A stretch of DNA of 64,000 nucleotides from NCBI GenBank assembly GCA_963662275.1, contig OY759316.1, positions 736,001 through 800,000 of the forward strand. Direction: 5' to 3'. The stretch comes from Candidatus Cloacimonadales bacterium. GTDB taxonomy: Bacteria; Cloacimonadota; Cloacimonadia; Cloacimonadales; DAONDQ01. Every line of letters starts with the position of its first letter. The first letter of the stretch is position 1. The notes beneath the pieces were generated by a model, which did no database searches, was not told the DNA's origin, and was given only the letters and a program-made list of their open reading frames with translations. Both the position numbers and the translations under genes were made by a program. Shown here piece after piece: positions 1 through 22,805 of the stretch.

Positions 1-393
1 AAACGTTTCAAGGATAAGATACGTAAGCTTACTCCCCGCAACAGTGGCATCCCAATATCCATGACGATAGGAAGCCTGAATCCTGTACTAAGGGGATGGG
101 GTAACTATTTCAAAGTTGCGAGTTGTAAAAGCATCTTTGCGAGCCTGATGGAATGGATACGAAGGAGGCTTCGAATGAAGAAGATGCGTGAATGGAAGAG
201 CTGGAAAGCATTCCATAAAGCAATGCGCAGACAAGGCTTCAAGGGAGAATGCCCAAAACTATCTATGACCAGATGGCGTAACGCTCAGAGCTTCCACTTA
301 TGCTTTGCCTTGCCGAACAAGTGGTTTGAAGAAATGAAGTTGTTTGATTTGACATCACTTCAGACAAGTGTTTTATTTAATTACTACGAGTAA
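1..393 (+). CDS. ltrA: Group II intron reverse transcriptase/maturase, C-terminal (thumb/X domain) part; 5'-truncated by the window edge
   Basis: Frame is open from base 1 (KRFKDKIRKLTPRNSG...LNPVLRGWGNYF...WIRRRLR), the maturase X-domain signature; intron DV/DVI follow directly. Confidence 0.93.
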   Translation, partial: KRFKDKIRKLTPRNSGIPISMTIGSLNPVLRGWGNYFKVASCKSIFASLMEWIRRRLRMKKMREWKSWKAFHKAMRRQGFKGECPKLSMTRWRNAQSFHLCFALPNKWFEEMKLFDLTSLQTSVLFNYYE

Positions 394-490
394 TTACAAG
401 GATTATCAGGAGCCGTGTACGAGACCCGTACGCACGGTTCTGTGAGAGGGATGATGCTGGAATTAATTAGCCAGCATCACCCTACTCGAT
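1..490 (+). mobile_element. 3' part of a group II intron (short DV, IIC-like); ends at ...CCTACTCGAT
   Basis: DV GAGCCGTGTACGAGACCCGTACGCACGGTTC (410-440), DVI hairpin GATGCTGG...CCAGCATC with bulged A, terminal AT at 489-490. Confidence 0.92.
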
Positions 491-18088: not shown

Positions 18089-18178
18089 TGTCGCCCCGCT
18101 GGGGCTTTTAGGTGACTTTGATGTTGTCTGCACCGGGCTTACGCCCGGTGTTATGGTCGGAAAGCCCGTACCGGGCTG
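18089..18178 (+). repeat. REP-like triple-hairpin element; inverted copy of the array unit
   Basis: GCCCCGCTGGGGC, CCGGGCTTACGCCCGGTGTTA (18133-18153) and AGCCCGTACCGGGCT hairpins. Confidence 0.7.
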
Positions 18179-18234: not shown

Positions 18235-18288
18235 TAGAGATTCGAGAGTAATCTTCTGCTTCTTCACCCCATCGGGATTTTCTTGCTA

Positions 18289-20158
18289 ATAGGGGTAGGG
18301 GAGTAATCCATTACTGGCTCCCCTCCCTCCGAACCGTACGTGCGGTTCTCCCGCATACGGCTCTCCAGAAAACGAGTTCTCATTTAAGAGATTGACATAA
18401 TTCCTGATGGGCTTTGGTTAATGAGAAAAACCCAGCATTATCAAAGATGTAATTTGGATACCTGATATTGTCTTTTCCTGTGGCAATACCATAGCGCTTT
18501 TTCCTCTTTCTGAGGATACTGCGTAGCCTGTGTCTTACCCAGCCATCCAAGTTAGGAAAGACTGTTTTGTAACAGTGTTTGTAATACTCGAACCAACCTC
18601 TTTGAATCGGCTTGATTTTAGCTATTATGGTTTGTAAGCTGTGGGCATTACTGCGTCCGGTACATTTACGGATGCTGTCTTTGAACTTGTTGATACTCTT
18701 CTGTCTGGGGTATCTTTTACCCTTGAAGAAGTGGTATCCTAAAAATTCCACCGCTTCCGTTTCTGCGTCCAGTATTTTAGTCTTTTCAGGATGCAAAACC
18801 AGACCTGCTTTTTCAACCCATTCGCCTATTGTACATAAAGCCATTTCTGCTTCCTCTCGACTTTGACACATGACTACAAAATCATCCGCATAGCGTATCA
18901 TTCTATAGCCTTTGCCTGCCATAAGCCAGTCCAGAGGATTCAGATAAATGTTTGCCAGTAATGGACTGATAACTGCTCCCTGAGGTGTTCCCGTTTCCGG
19001 TGTCCAGGTTGACGTTGTATCCATTACTTTTTGATTCAAATAGTCATTGATAAGATTCAGAACTTTCCCGTCTGCTATCTTTTCTCCTACACGCTTCATC
19101 AGCTTGTCCTGCGGTATACTGTCAAAGTATCCTTTCAGGTCTGCATCCACAACAAAGACGTATCCCTGCTTGAGAAGTCCATCGACTTGTCTTAAAGCAT
19201 CTTTGCAGTCGCGTTTGGGACGAAAGCCATAACTGTGTTCGGCAAATCCCTGTTCAAATATCGGTTCGATTACATTGCGCAGTGCTGTTTGTACTACTCT
19301 GTCCGTGACGGTCGGTATGCCCAAAGGTCTCTTTTCCTTACTGCCCGGTTTATCTATCCAGACACGTTTGATTCCATTGGGTTGATACGCTTCCTTTTGC
19401 AACAGTTCGGAGGTTCGTACTAATCTTGCCAGCGCATGTCTTTTGTAGTGCTGGATGCTGACATTGTCGATACCGGCACTACCTCTGTTGGATGCCACGT
19501 GTTTCCAAGCTGATGCAAGGTTTGCCATGGCATATACCTTGTCTATCAGACTGAACCATTTTCCACCTTTGACGCCCATTTCGAGCGCTGCCAACATTTT
19601 GTCAGACCATACTGACGGTTCCACCCAACTCCATTGCGGAGGGATTTCTCGTTCTTGTTTAGCCGTTTTCGGCAATAATGAACGTTGATCTTCCATCAAT
19701 ACTCCTTTCAAAATTCATTTTCCTGTGCCCCTTCGCTACTTTCAGGTTATAGTGTCCTGAATATCATCGCTACTATGAACACTCTGACTCCTGCTGATGT
19801 CTCTTCCCATCAGCAGGTCTCATAGCTTGAGATAGAAACCTTCACAACATTCCGTCTCCAGTCACTTGATACAATCAGTACATGGCTTTTGCACGTCATC
19901 TCAGCCTGTCTGCCATCTTCCGGGGGAAACTCCGGTTCACCCGAAGTGCATCATTCCAGAAGATTTTGGTCTTCGCTTAAGGCTAGCAAGCTCGACATTG
20001 TATCCTGCCGAATCGAGTTCGTTATCCTACGGACTGCTGTTTCGTCATTTGTTACTCCCCACCCCATCTCACGATGAAGCAGTTACATAGACTACCAGGC
20101 ATGACGTAGCCTGAAATGGGACTTGCACCCATCCGATTTCTATCTATCACTATCGTAC
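18289..20158 (-). mobile_element. Complete group II intron (1870 nt) encoding an RT without endonuclease domain
   Basis: 5' end GTACG at 20158; DV GAGCCGTATGCGGGAGAACCGCACGTACGGTTC; DVI and 3' end CCTACCCCTAT at 18289; removing it restores an intact repeat unit (..TTGCTA|TAACACCCGGGCG..). Confidence 0.9.
18380..19696 (-). CDS. ltrA: Group II intron reverse transcriptase/maturase
   Basis: AGGAG RBS before ATG 19696; AGID, RPLGIPTVTDR, SYGFRP, GTPQGAVISPLLANIYL, RYADD, FLGY, RGWFEYY. Confidence 0.96.
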   Translation of the reverse strand: MEDQRSLLPKTAKQEREIPPQWSWVEPSVWSDKMLAALEMGVKGGKWFSLIDKVYAMANLASAWKHVASNRGSAGIDNVSIQHYKRHALARLVRTSELLQKEAYQPNGIKRVWIDKPGSKEKRPLGIPTVTDRVVQTALRNVIEPIFEQGFAEHSYGFRPKRDCKDALRQVDGLLKQGYVFVVDADLKGYFDSIPQDKLMKRVGEKIADGKVLNLINDYLNQKVMDTTSTWTPETGTPQGAVISPLLANIYLNPLDWLMAGKGYRMIRYADDFVVMCQSREEAEMALCTIGEWVEKAGLVLHPEKTKILDAETEAVEFLGYHFFKGKRYPRQKSINKFKDSIRKCTGRSNAHSLQTIIAKIKPIQRGWFEYYKHCYKTVFPNLDGWVRHRLRSILRKRKKRYGIATGKDNIRYPNYIFDNAGFFSLTKAHQELCQSLK

Positions 20159-20335
20159 TAACACCCGGGCGTAAGCCCGGCGGGAGAGACACAAGAATAA
20201 CGTGACACAATCTTCTTCTGCTGCTTCTTCTTCTTCCTTCTCCATCCCATCGGGATGTTCTTTCTATAACGCTCGGGCGTAAGCCCGGCGGGAGAGATAC
20301 AAGAATAACGTGACACAATCTTCTTCTGCTTCTTC

Positions 20336-22228
20336 GGAGATGTCCCGAAACTAGCATGATTTTATTTTCTTCTGTTGTAAAATATGTGATTGTTTTTACA
20401 GGCAAACTAAATTACTCAATAGTTTCCGAAAAGCGATGCAAAGACAAGGAAAAACGGAGTAATATTTACCTAATTCATGTTTGAATTCTGGTAGGAAGAG
20501 TCTTCATCAGGCTTTTCCTTCAGTATTTTGTAAGTGCAGAAACATTTTCCCTATATTATGTCCTAAAAAGAGGAGGGATAACTGTTCCTTGCATTTTCTC
20601 AATGAACGGACAGTAAATCTCTCAAACTTCCTGTTCCACTTCATGAAAGCAAATACAGCCTCCGGTTCGATGCCTCTTTGCTTTCTCAGCTTGTCGCCTT
20701 TTTCAGAAAGCAGATTATTGACTGTCTGACGTTTTAGTGGAGCTATATGAGGATCGTAGGTCAGTGATTTATGAGTTTTATCCTTGTAGGGAATACACTT
20801 TTTATTGTGAGGACATTCTCTGCAGTCATTACATATATAGGTTTTCACGATTCGTTTCGGACCGTTCTTCTCTGTCTCTTCTTCCTTGATTTTGACCAGT
20901 CTCCGATTAAATTGACAGACCCACTCATCATGCTCCTCATCATAGCTGAAGCCTGTCAGAAGAGAGTCCCGATAATCTCTCTTATAATCCTGGGTCTTGA
21001 GATAGCTTGTTATCTCTTTTTCAGCAGCATAATTCAAATTCAGCGCAGTGCCATAGGCAGCATCTCCAACAACGTCGGTAGGATATTGTCCCAATTCATC
21101 ATGCATTTGCTCCATGAGATTGGGAAATTCAACGGTTTCTTTAGGGATATTGAATAAGTGAATGCCTGTGACAAATTGCTCTGAAGTTCCGATACTGGCA
21201 ACATAACCCGGTGCCAGCTGTCCATTTTTCAATCGCATAAATGTGGCATCATTATCAGTCTTGGATGTGCTGCTGCGTCCTTCTCCAATTATCTCAAGCT
21301 GTTGCTCATATTTCTCCAGCTTAGTTATATCATTGCTCTTTGATTTGGAGATTTCGCGCAAAAGAGATTTGATTTTCTTGATAGCCCGAGTATCTGACGG
21401 ATGATTTTTCTGTAGTCGGGACATTGCTTCTTTCAGCTTGTTTTCTGCTGAGACCAGTCTATCTCTGATCTGTTCAGATGCGACTGTAGCAGTTTTCTCT
21501 GATTCAACCGCATGCAATTGCTCACCAAGCTCAAGAAGATCAGCGGTTCCATATTGCTGTTGCTCTTCCTGATTATATTCCTCGATCTTTTTAAACAATC
21601 CCTCAACTCGTGTCTTGACCAGTTCCTGATAACGAAGCGCATTGCTTTTCCAGATGTAGGAATTCTTGCCGGCATTTGCGTGAATCGTCGTCCCGTCAAC
21701 AAAACAGGTGTCGAGATCAAGATATCCTAATGATGATGCTTTCAGTACTACCTGATAAAATACATCAATAAGAATATCAGAACACTTAGTCCAGGCAAAG
21801 GTGTTGATCGTTCTGAAATCAGGTTCCTGTTCTCCTGCCAGCCAGATAAAATTGATGTTCTCCCGAACAGCCTTAGCTATCTTCCGACAGGTATAAATAC
21901 CATTGATATAGGCATACACAATGATCTTCAACATCATCTTGGGATGATAAGCAGGTGTACCTTCATCAGAGTATCTTGTGTATAGCTCAGATAAGTCCAG
22001 TTGCTCAACGACATCGTTAACATAACGAACCATGTGCTGGGGAGGTATTCTCTCTTCAATATTAAGTCCATAGAGTGTCCCCTGATTCGGATTGTGCTCT
22101 CTGAAATTCATAATTCTCTCTATGCTTAGTTTTTAAAGGCAACAATACACCCTATAACAATATGTCAAGTAATATGATTAATATTTAATAGTTGCTATTT
22201 TTCTATCATTTAGTTTCGGGACATCTCC
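20336..22228 (-). mobile_element. IS1182-family insertion sequence
   Basis: Perfect 18-bp terminal inverted repeats GGAGATGTCCCGAAACTA (20336-20353 and 22211-22228) around a single transposase. Confidence 0.92.
20507..22111 (-). CDS. IS1182-family DDE transposase
   Basis: AYHPKMMLK..PDFRTI (DUF772-like), VDGTTIHANA, TDNDATFM, GDAAYG, Cys-rich segment, IEPEAVFA.MK. Confidence 0.93.
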   Translation of the reverse strand: MNFREHNPNQGTLYGLNIEERIPPQHMVRYVNDVVEQLDLSELYTRYSDEGTPAYHPKMMLKIIVYAYINGIYTCRKIAKAVRENINFIWLAGEQEPDFRTINTFAWTKCSDILIDVFYQVVLKASSLGYLDLDTCFVDGTTIHANAGKNSYIWKSNALRYQELVKTRVEGLFKKIEEYNQEEQQQYGTADLLELGEQLHAVESEKTATVASEQIRDRLVSAENKLKEAMSRLQKNHPSDTRAIKKIKSLLREISKSKSNDITKLEKYEQQLEIIGEGRSSTSKTDNDATFMRLKNGQLAPGYVASIGTSEQFVTGIHLFNIPKETVEFPNLMEQMHDELGQYPTDVVGDAAYGTALNLNYAAEKEITSYLKTQDYKRDYRDSLLTGFSYDEEHDEWVCQFNRRLVKIKEEETEKNGPKRIVKTYICNDCRECPHNKKCIPYKDKTHKSLTYDPHIAPLKRQTVNNLLSEKGDKLRKQRGIEPEAVFAFMKWNRKFERFTVRSLRKCKEQLSLLFLGHNIGKMFLHLQNTEGKA

Positions 22229-22805
22229 GTTCTTTCTATAACGCTCGGGCGTAAGCCCGGCGGGAAAAGCTCTAAAATAACGGGACACTATCTTCTTCTG
22301 CTTCTTCTTCTTCCTTCTTCATCCCATCGGGATGTTCTTTCTGTAACGCTCGGGCGTAAGCCCGGCGGGAGAGGATCGAGAATACGGGACACTATCTTCT
22401 TCTGCTTCTTCATCCTATGGGGATGTTATTTTTATAAATGTACTCTGCTAGCCCAGGAAGTCCTTCCTGGGTTGAGATGGCACGACAACGTTTGAGTTCG
22501 GTAGGACGGCACAATACATATACCGAAGCAATCAACGCCTGAAGGAGTTACCACACAGGCTAAAGGAGTTGCCACCAATCGTATTACGGCTTGTTAAGCC
22601 GTTAATAGAGTGGTTGTTAACCCCGAATCTCTATATACCAGAACTTTGTAAGATGTTATGAGGTTTGGGTGAATCATAAATCTAAAACTTAAATTGATTG
22701 TTACTAATTCAAGTATTCTGCTGAAGTAATTTCGTTGACACATTTATTTAGAACATCATTACTGCCATAGAAATCGAAAATCATCATTTGAAGGGCAGTG
22801 AAAAT

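Follow-up and report, generated by a model that had tools for sequence, protein, structure and literature searches.

The question raised by this locus is how a group II intron that lacks several hallmarks of class C (IIC) introns has come to lie a few nucleotides behind a DNA hairpin, as class C introns do. The window analyzed here is a stretch of 64,000 nucleotides from Candidatus Cloacimonadales bacterium, corresponding to positions 736001-800000 of a single-contig genome of 4.38 Mb (39% G+C), and it contains on its reverse strand a complete group II intron of 1870 nt (18289..20158), designated family A. Coordinates refer to the window unless the genome is named. With a probability of roughly 0.72, this intron is taken to be an active, endonuclease-less group II retroelement that belongs to a lineage sister to class C, works in the manner of IIC introns, and targets hairpins.

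Intron Anatomy and Genomic Copies

The intron was identified by an Rfam scan, by reading of the sequence, and from its copies elsewhere in the genome. The scan matched RF00029 (domains V-VI) at 18289-18365 (-) with 63.6 bits against a gathering score of 40. On the same strand, the 5' end reads GUACG (20154..20158), of which A3-C4 (20156-20155) are epsilon; the partner epsilon' is G104-U105 (20054..20055), located in a 6-nt GGAGUA bulge of stem Ic. Domain IV holds an open reading frame (ORF) of 443 codons (18380..19711, -) for a reverse transcriptase (RT)/maturase, which likely starts at the ATG at 19696, preceded by AAGGAG. This ORF contains the RVT_1 (8e-40) and GIIM (3e-17) domains and matched TIGR04416 with 378 bits (cut-off 300); no endonuclease (En) domain was found in it by domain search. 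Domain V (18331..18363, -) is 33 nt long and has an AGC triad, a 4-bp distal stem (GCGG/CCGC), and a 5-nt loop (GAGAA). Domain VI and the 3' end, ...CCUACCCCUAU, span 18289..18330 (-), with the branch A likely at 18296. The ribozyme is compact (~540 nt without the ORF), and a consensus fold of domains I-III from 10 relatives comprised 85 pairs, 58 of them with compensatory changes.

Six family A copies of 1870 nt, 100% identical to one another, and one 272-nt 5' fragment (98% identity) were found in the genome, and the flanks of the copies diverge exactly at the proposed intron ends. As had been noted from the window alone, the rejoined exons match the adjacent uninterrupted repeat unit (20237-20335), with 87% identity on one side (18259-18288 versus 20237-20266) and 94% on the other (20159-20227 versus 20267-20335). 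That neighboring unit, located at 20228..20340 (-), carries an unoccupied hairpin-GTTA/T site with its junction at 20267/20266 (a slash between bases marks the point of insertion), and an inverted hairpin copy followed by TGTTA/T at 18133..18156 (+) offers a candidate site, likewise unoccupied, on the opposite strand. In the two remaining hairpin families used by the intron, the sequence of empty paralogous sites is exactly that of the joined exons, e.g., ...GCTATGGGCTA/TCATCTTGCATAC. Because empty paralogous sites match the joined exons, the intron ends are fixed; together with the RF00029 match, the ORF, and the copies, they show that the coordinates given in the sequence-only reading for an intron with a GTACG 5' end were exact. 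The intron junctions were also confirmed in contigs of four sequencing runs, in which the flanks of the other copies appeared as loose ends; a search for runs containing this stretch listed none of RNA.

Insertion Sites

The 5' exon target of the window copy (20159..20183, -) is the hairpin CGC-CGGGC-TTAC-GCCCG-g-GTG followed by TTA. Intron-binding site 1 (IBS1), GUUA, occupies 20162-20159, and IBS3 is the first base of the 3' exon, a T at 18288 (-). This hairpin family was used at one site in the genome, that of the window copy; CCCATAGC-TKAC-GCTATGGG followed by CTA was used at four sites, and CGC-CGGAT-TGAA-ATCCG-a-GCG followed by TTA at two. All seven 5' exons thus consist of a GC-rich hairpin and (C/T)TA, and the first 3' exon base is T in 6/6 full copies. 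By minimum free energy, 6 nt separate the end of the window-copy hairpin CCGGGC-TTAC-GCCCGG from the junction, and the distance is 3 nt with the stem extended through the bulged G as in the CGGAT family; the sequence-only reading had placed the hairpin correctly, and its distance of about 5 nt is replaced by these values.

A perfect stem of at least 5 bp ending 2-7 nt upstream was present at 7/7 own sites compared with 223 of 20,000 random positions (1.1%). The 32-nt 5' exon DNA folded with -7.0 to -8.3 kcal/mol at each of the seven sites, while -6 kcal/mol was reached by 0.9% of 5,000 random 32-mers (DNA parameters). The intron lies 3-7 nt after the hairpin not only at these sites but also at 16/16 foreign sites, where the energies of the predicted hairpins ranged from -3.9 to -10.8 and were -5.7 or lower in 15/16. 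The foreign sites were the loci with a readable 5' junction (L020, L036, L021, L033, L027, L023, L035, L024, L026, L025, L041, L050, L059, L063, L066, and L068). Since a hairpin was predicted at all 16, occupation of hairpin-free sites by homologues fails as a refutation of hairpin targeting. With identical copies behind three different hairpins and relatives behind unrelated ones, targeting is guided by the hairpin and not by a long sequence match, as had been proposed from the window alone.

Exon Recognition

The exon-binding sites were not evident from a single-sequence minimum-free-energy fold of domains I-III alone and were therefore located by alignment with relatives. Rfam D1D4-3 alignments of the family A intron and of family B, a second group II intron family of the same genome, led to the loop GCUU-GCUAGCCUU-AAGC, which is homologous to the exon-binding site 1 (EBS1) loop of the D1D4-3 model and of family B. 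Within the 9-nt terminal loop GCUAGCCUU, EBS1 is UAGCCU (19985-19980, -), the partner of (GG)GYUA; it pairs with GGGCUA (6 bp, one G-U) or with GUUA (4 bp, one G-U). The pairing amounts to 4 bp at three own sites, up to 6 bp at four own sites, and 4-6 bp in relatives. In relatives, the bases at this loop position covary with those of the 5' exon, as seen from the EBS1-IBS1 pairs UAUCCU-GGGAUA (L035), GGAAC-GUUCC (L024), CUGUC-GACAG (L026), UAGAU-AUCUA (L025), AAUAUC-GGUAUU (L020), GAGC-GUUC (L033), ACUAA-UUAGU (L041 and L050), and UAGGG-CCCUA (G016, 4 sites). An EBS1 for the exon end GTGTTA, which the sequence-only reading had been unable to find, is therefore present. Pairing of this short length alone cannot explain hairpins at 7/7 sites.

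EBS3 is A297 (19862, -), within the motif GUG-N-YUGG, and its partner is the first 3' exon base. Covariation between EBS3 and IBS3 was found in three states, namely A/T in the window intron and L036, G/C in most relatives, and U/A in the pBN3 and Cupriavidus plasmid introns; EBS3 of L020 is a G opposite T. In the consensus fold of the 10 relatives, no d2/EBS2 arm was found before the EBS1 hairpin, the place of EBS2 in IIA and IIB introns. Since the identical intron lies behind three different stems, an EBS2-IBS2 pairing cannot hold at all sites.

Both GUACG and GUGCG occur as 5' ends in the clade to which the intron belongs. Position 3 covaries with the second base of the GU/GC epsilon' dinucleotide (A3-U or G3-C) in 9/10 aligned sequences, and the exception is the decayed L035. 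Because the change between A3 and G3 is compensated in epsilon', GUACG is a compensated variant and not the mark of class for which it had been taken.

Ribozyme Class and Reverse Transcriptase Phylogeny

Class C introns have been defined by small size, a distal stem of domain V that is shortened by 2 bp relative to IIA and IIB, a CGC instead of an AGC triad, an 11-nt AGGAA epsilon' bulge, an IBS1-EBS1 pairing of 3-4 bp, EBS3-IBS3, and a 5' exon stem-loop located where IBS2 would lie, with no EBS2 (Toor 2006, PMC1702495). The family A intron shares the small size, the 5' exon stem-loop, the lack of EBS2, and EBS3; its EBS1-IBS1 pairing, at 4-6 bp, agrees only roughly with the definition, and its domain V distal stem, triad, and epsilon' bulge differ. 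Domain V of 12/12 clade members examined has AGC, a 4-bp distal stem, and a 5-nt loop, which is the architecture of class F-like references, and such a 5-nt loop domain V has been described for IIE and IIF introns (Nagy 2013, PMC3753933). In the class C references the triad is CGC, the distal stem 3 bp, and the loop 4 nt. Domain V had been read from the sequence as full-length and of the AGC type; the triad is as described, while the domain, at 33 nt with a 5-nt loop, falls slightly short of full length, its distal stem of 4 bp being 1 bp shorter than that of IIA and IIB (3 bp in the IIC references). Because family B, which targets terminators, carries an AGC triad together with a 3-bp distal stem, the CGC triad is not universal among IIC-type introns. 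The epsilon' bulge of the family A clade is 6 nt (GGAGYA) instead of the 11-nt AGGAA.

Rfam families for domains I-IV (D1-D4) were tied to classes through introns labelled in Table S2 of Toro 2013 and Table 3 of Miura 2022, by which D1D4-3 corresponds to class C (an equation that rests on the labelled references used here), D1D4-4 to class F-like, D1D4-2 to class D, D1D4-6 to class E, and D1D4-7 to class CL1A. The window intron matched D1D4-3 weakly, with 31.9 bits (gathering score, 32). Within the clade, L035, L041, and L050 reached 34-47 bits (clade range 31.9-46.8), IIC references reached 52-140 bits, and L020 and L036 had weak D1D4-4 matches instead (30-31 bits).

A scan of one genome per species yielded 19 loci related to family A. 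The closest RTs were from Cloacimonadota metagenome-assembled genomes (MAGs; 72-61% identity), followed by those of Thermoanaerobaculia, Pyrinomonadaceae, and proteobacterial MAGs (57-54%); the nearest plasmid introns were those of Cupriavidus and Paraburkholderia (48-50% identity), and the clade member pBN3 has 48% amino acid identity. A close homologue was present in 4/41 genomes of the same order, the own genome included, and none was present in the one genome of the same genus.

The RT phylogeny was calculated from 31 rows with IQ-TREE (LG+G4), and support is given as ultrafast bootstrap/SH-aLRT. Two long rows, L037 and L038, were dropped since they had distorted an earlier mixture-model tree; L035 was absent because its RT is frameshifted, and L022, L027, L029, L033, L034, and L036 were absent as duplicates or partial sequences. 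The references included no class B or CL1B intron. The window RT, its MAG relatives, the pBN3 and Cupriavidus introns, and a Desulfosporosinus intron formed one 100/100 clade. This clade joined class C in a 100/99 superclade and lay outside the three class C references, which formed a 97/92 group (family B, a P. hospita intron labelled C by Miura, and a Pediococcus intron; the class of one reference was taken from Miura's table and that of the other two from their features). Also within the superclade was another unclassified clade, the second one (89/89), the branching order of its three subclades was not resolved by this tree, and the F-like, D, E, g1, A, CL1A, and ML references fell outside. 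The best matches of the window RT in the PDB were the IIC RTs 7uim and 6ar1 (216 and 210 bits). Against 6ar1 and 7uim, respectively, family B scored 293 and 280 bits, the window RT 210 and 216, and the class F RT of Ni.ha.I1 180 and 164. A membership in Toro's g1 through 'Ca.ac.I1' was considered and dropped, as the name refers to Catenulispora and not to Cloacimonas.

The alternative that survives best holds that family A is simply a divergent member of class C or of g6 and not a distinct lineage. It is judged unlikely. In its favor, the best solved-structure matches are IIC RTs, the sole Rfam D1-D4 match of the window intron is the IIC-type D1D4-3, the superclade is shared with class C, the targeting behavior is identical to that of IIC introns, and g6, whose RNA structure is similar, is itself placed outside a class C that is monophyletic (Toro and Nisa-Martinez 2014, PMC4244168). 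Against it stand a domain V of class E/F type in 12/12 clade members (3-bp stem and 4-nt loop in the class C references), the 6-nt bulge in place of the 11-nt AGGAA, an RT clade apart from the three class C references, and the scores obtained with solved IIC RTs, 210-216 bits compared with 280-293 for family B and 164-180 for a class F RT. In addition, the clade member pBN3 is listed in Table 3 of Miura 2022 (PMC8919778) as 'Unclassified, canonical', that is, as neither C nor g6. The family was accordingly filed as a sister lineage with IIC-type targeting, because three of the RNA features that define IIC and membership in the clade of IIC intron-encoded proteins were lacking as far as tested. 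The sequence-only reading had described it as not a typical IIC, which agrees with its AGC triad, domain V stem and loop, epsilon' bulge, and RT position. The same reading had gone on to a non-IIC lineage homing to repetitive extragenic palindrome (REP) hairpins; a position outside canonical IIC is borne out and the hairpins do look like REPs, while remoteness from IIC is not supported, the lineage being close to IIC in its D1D4-3 domain I match, its lack of an EBS2 arm, its short EBS1, and an EBS3 as in IIB and IIC.

Target Repeats, Y1 Transposases, and an Insertion Sequence

A motif scan for the three target-hairpin families gave 79 matches in the genome. The hairpins are dispersed and also occur in tandem arrays of 70-nt and 108-nt units, in both orientations and with many unoccupied sites. 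The Y1-transposase family PF01797 gave 15 matches, four of them full length, and two of the four full-length genes have hairpin arrays within 75-330 nt. These genes (~150-180 aa, RAYT-like, i.e., resembling REP-associated tyrosine transposases), at genome positions 1451063-1451401 and 3137270-3137614, are flanked by arrays of intron-target hairpins, and one of the array-flanked genes has an intron copy on its other side. Palindromic repeats that flank a Y1-transposase gene are the layout of REP/RAYT systems. The arrangement suggests that a true REP/RAYT system is present in this Cloacimonadales genome, and the description of the hairpins as REP-like is supported by their dispersed and tandem copies, some of which flank Y1-transposase genes.

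An insertion sequence (IS) of ~1895 nt is located at 20335..22229 (-), with inverted ends GGAGATGTCCCGAAA and a DDE transposase at 20507-22111 (DUF772 and DDE_Tnp_1_6). It is inserted in the same repeat array as the intron and is separate from it; two further units of the 108-nt hairpin repeat lie on its far side (22229..22411, -). Twenty full copies of the IS were found, and it lies 7-182 nt from 4/6 family A intron loci. Because at least 5/20 copies are located 8-9 nt past a hairpin-GTTA motif, the IS seems to use the repeat hairpins of the intron as landing sites.

It is rather improbable that the hairpins are not REPs but terminators lacking a T-run ('I-shaped'), with the intron targeting terminators as IIC introns do and the repeats being secondary. 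The window copy does lie downstream of, and in the same sense as, a transposase gene, between convergent genes, and no preference between L-shaped and I-shaped terminators was found in an earlier study (Miura 2022, PMC8919778). The hairpins nonetheless form the tandem arrays of 70-nt and 108-nt units in both orientations, the arrays flank 2/4 full-length Y1-transposase genes, and the upstream 'gene' in the window belongs to the IS that is itself inserted into the array.

Remnants of a sister intron were also present in the genome, as three 5' fragments of ~125 nt (GUGCGAUAG...) with 77-79% identity to the family A intron. They lie on the reverse strand at genome positions 3889056-3889162, 2539099-2539203, and 514287-514391, their first 100 nt are 98-99% alike, and each follows a CCGC-GTAAAT-GCGG hairpin and about 5 nt. 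The 272-nt family A fragment is located at genome 3864934-3865205. These fragments appear to be remnants truncated on the 3' side, the opposite of what an incomplete reverse transcription product would look like.

Family B and Orientation to Replication

Family B comprises 11 copies of ~2.1 kb, and its RT is 38% identical to that of family A. The 3' end of one copy occupies window positions 1-490 (+), with a domain V/VI match at 408-490; the element spans genome ~734380-736490. Family B is a textbook IIC intron, with a hairpin and T-run before 10/11 copies and a T-less hairpin before 1/11, T as the first 3' exon base in 11/11, and an A-rich EBS1 loop; it starts with GUUUG, not GUGYG, and its D1D4-3 match scores 51.6 bits. 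Family A targets without a T-run and family B terminators with a T-run thus occur in the same genome.

From GC skew, the replication origin was placed at ~4.16 Mb and the terminus at ~2.15 Mb. Copies pointing with fork movement number 6/7 for family A and 11/11 for family B, and the sense strand of such copies is the lagging-strand template. Introns without an En domain are known to insert into the lagging-strand template (Zimmerly and Semper 2015, PMC4424553), and the orientation of the copies fits insertion of this kind.

Proposed Targeting Model

Under the preferred reading, a hairpin-targeting, endonuclease-less lineage beside class C, the excised intron RNA and its RT/maturase would reverse-splice into single-stranded DNA immediately 3' of a DNA hairpin in its folded state. 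Recognition would rest on three features: the hairpin as a structure; an EBS1-IBS1 pairing of 4-6 bp (UAGC[CU] with [GG]GYUA) whose start directly adjoins the stem's 3' arm or overlaps it; and a single EBS3-IBS3 pair, A with T, with no EBS2-IBS2 pairing. The endonuclease being absent, the nascent lagging strand at the replication fork would presumably serve as primer. The hairpins preferred in this genome would be REP-type palindromic repeats without a T-run. The single-stranded hairpin substrate, priming at the fork, and present activity are inferred, whereas the anatomy, copy number, site pattern, covariations, and phylogenetic position were observed.

Several points weigh against this reading. 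The window copy of family A points against fork movement, and the co-orientation of the other copies with replication could reflect a gene-strand bias. The array sites at genome positions 1482825 and 1484835 may represent one event that was duplicated with the repeat unit, and the seven sites would therefore reflect fewer than seven independent events, although at least three hairpin families remain. At several sites IBS1 overlaps the 3' arm of the stem, where hairpin and EBS1 pairing would compete, and one internal mismatch occurs in the EBS1-IBS1 pairing of L021/L022 and of L027/L023. An empty allele of the window site, joined across the intron, was not seen in the contigs of the four runs. 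With class C thinly sampled in the tree, the clade may lie inside a wider class C. Present activity of the intron, finally, is suggested by its identical copies only.

That the intron follows ordinary sequence-specific homing, with the repeat as a multi-copy homing site and the hairpin incidental, is very improbable. Four of seven own sites do belong to one repeat family with EBS1 pairing of up to 6 bp, and homing to sequence-defined sites has been reported in every lineage except class C (Zimmerly and Semper 2015, PMC4424553), but the three hairpin families share only G-Y-T-A/T around the junction, a 5-mer that by arithmetic estimate would be present some 10^4 times in the 8.8 Mb that the two strands amount to, an EBS2 arm is lacking, and relatives with a different EBS1 still lie behind unrelated hairpins.

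Relation to Known Systems

The closest system is class C itself (B.h.I1, GsI-IIC, the E. rectale intron, and family B), which shares with family A the lack of En, a compact ribozyme, insertion a few nucleotides after a stem-loop, a short EBS1, an EBS3 as in IIB and IIC, no EBS2, the same Rfam D1-D4 family, and many identical copies mostly co-oriented with replication. Family A differs in domain V (4-bp stem, 5-nt loop, and AGC compared with 3 bp, 4 nt, and usually CGC), in the size of the epsilon' bulge (6 nt compared with the 11-nt AGGAA), in its separate RT clade, in targets that are repeat hairpins without a T-run, and in an EBS1 pairing of up to 6 bp. Recognition of a folded stem-loop is also the targeting mechanism of IIC-attC introns. 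As in family A, the target of this type (S.ma.I2) is the folded imperfect DNA stem-loop of a repeated element, in their case a recombination site, and not a terminator (PMC4424553). Family A differs in that its hairpin is of the REP type and not attC, and no integron context was seen in the window. Class E and F introns (Pe.th.I2, Ni.ha.I1) resemble family A in their domain V with a 5-nt loop, small size, and lack of En; unlike family A, they have a well-defined EBS2-IBS2 (Nagy 2013, PMC3753933), match D1D4-4 or D1D4-6 rather than D1D4-3, and have RTs outside the class C superclade.

Intron types near class C, namely g6, U1, and U2, are among those found right behind terminators (Miura 2022, PMC8919778). 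Family A resembles these types in that its clade member pBN3 is 'Unclassified' and in its placement beside class C (PMC8919778, PMC4244168); its equation with U1 or U2 is only inferred, because Table 3 gives no U1/U2/U3 label. In the available parts of these two papers, no RNA structure, EBS assignment, or repeat-hairpin targeting was found for the lineage. The occurrence of near-C unclassified types behind terminators weakens the view that homing to sites not defined by sequence is exclusive to class C (Miura 2022, PMC8919778). For a group II intron of P. putida, REPs have been described with 2/9 copies (Tobes and Pareja 2006, PMC1525189). A literature search, in which subscription journals were not covered, found no description of the RNA, the exon-binding sites, or REP-hairpin use of the family A clade, and nothing related on group II introns in Cloacimonas.

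The family A intron is not a new principle; unclassified RT types near class C are already known behind terminators (Miura 2022, PMC8919778). It is an anatomically resolved intron outside canonical class C that chooses its targets in the IIC way, by a hairpin, 4-6 bp, and 1 bp, and EBS1, EBS3, and epsilon-epsilon' of its lineage are all defined by covariation. Because IIC-type targeting occurs here in an intron that lacks the IIC-specific domain V and epsilon' features, this targeting mode is separable from them, which bears on the origin of structure-guided DNA recognition in group II introns. Two hairpin-targeting families in one genome, one directed to terminators with a T-run and one to T-less REPs, form a natural pair for asking what the ribonucleoprotein reads beyond the stem, and six identical copies and a compact RNA make family A a candidate for biochemical or structural work. 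More tentatively, and at slightly less than even odds, hairpin-guided, EBS2-less retrotransposition may be a shared and possibly ancestral habit of class C and several unclassified RT lineages; family A, with its E/F-type domain V, would then have specialized on REP/RAYT hairpins without a T-run, partitioning the niche with the IIC family and sharing landing pads with the IS.

Additional Observations

In several relatives the RT gene contains an in-frame TGA. It is located at the same RT codon (...KTKIF*KFPKRK..., the asterisk denoting the stop) in L021, L023, and L033 (about 1189-2560) and in loci L060, L061, and L064 of genomes G020 and G038, in three Cloacimonadales genomes in all, and it sits in a short insertion relative to the window RT. 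Such conservation between genomes is a hint of read-through or recoding, the alternative being a defect that they share.

Two further relatives have unusual structures. In L028, a contig of 2029 nt from a Desulfosporosinus MAG, a clade member's 3' end abuts another intron 5' end (...CCCCTAT/GTGCGCTCG); this junction may stem from a tandem copy, from an intron circle, or from circular assembly of the contig. L043 (NZ_CP024940, 562500-565400), on the P. hospita plasmid pmHSR1_P, is listed as 'Unclassified' by Miura. Its 5' part is of the class C type, matching D1D4-3 with 140 bits and lying behind a T-run, but its RT falls in the second unclassified clade and its domain V is F-type; the whole may be a nested or composite element.

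Contigs of two sequencing runs contain a joint that skips 18368-19767 (1398 nt) of the family A intron, the two ends of the skipped part lying just upstream of domain V and of the ORF, respectively. The shorter side of this joint is only 27 nt, and it may represent an ORF-less derivative of the intron, an artefact, or a sequence from another organism.

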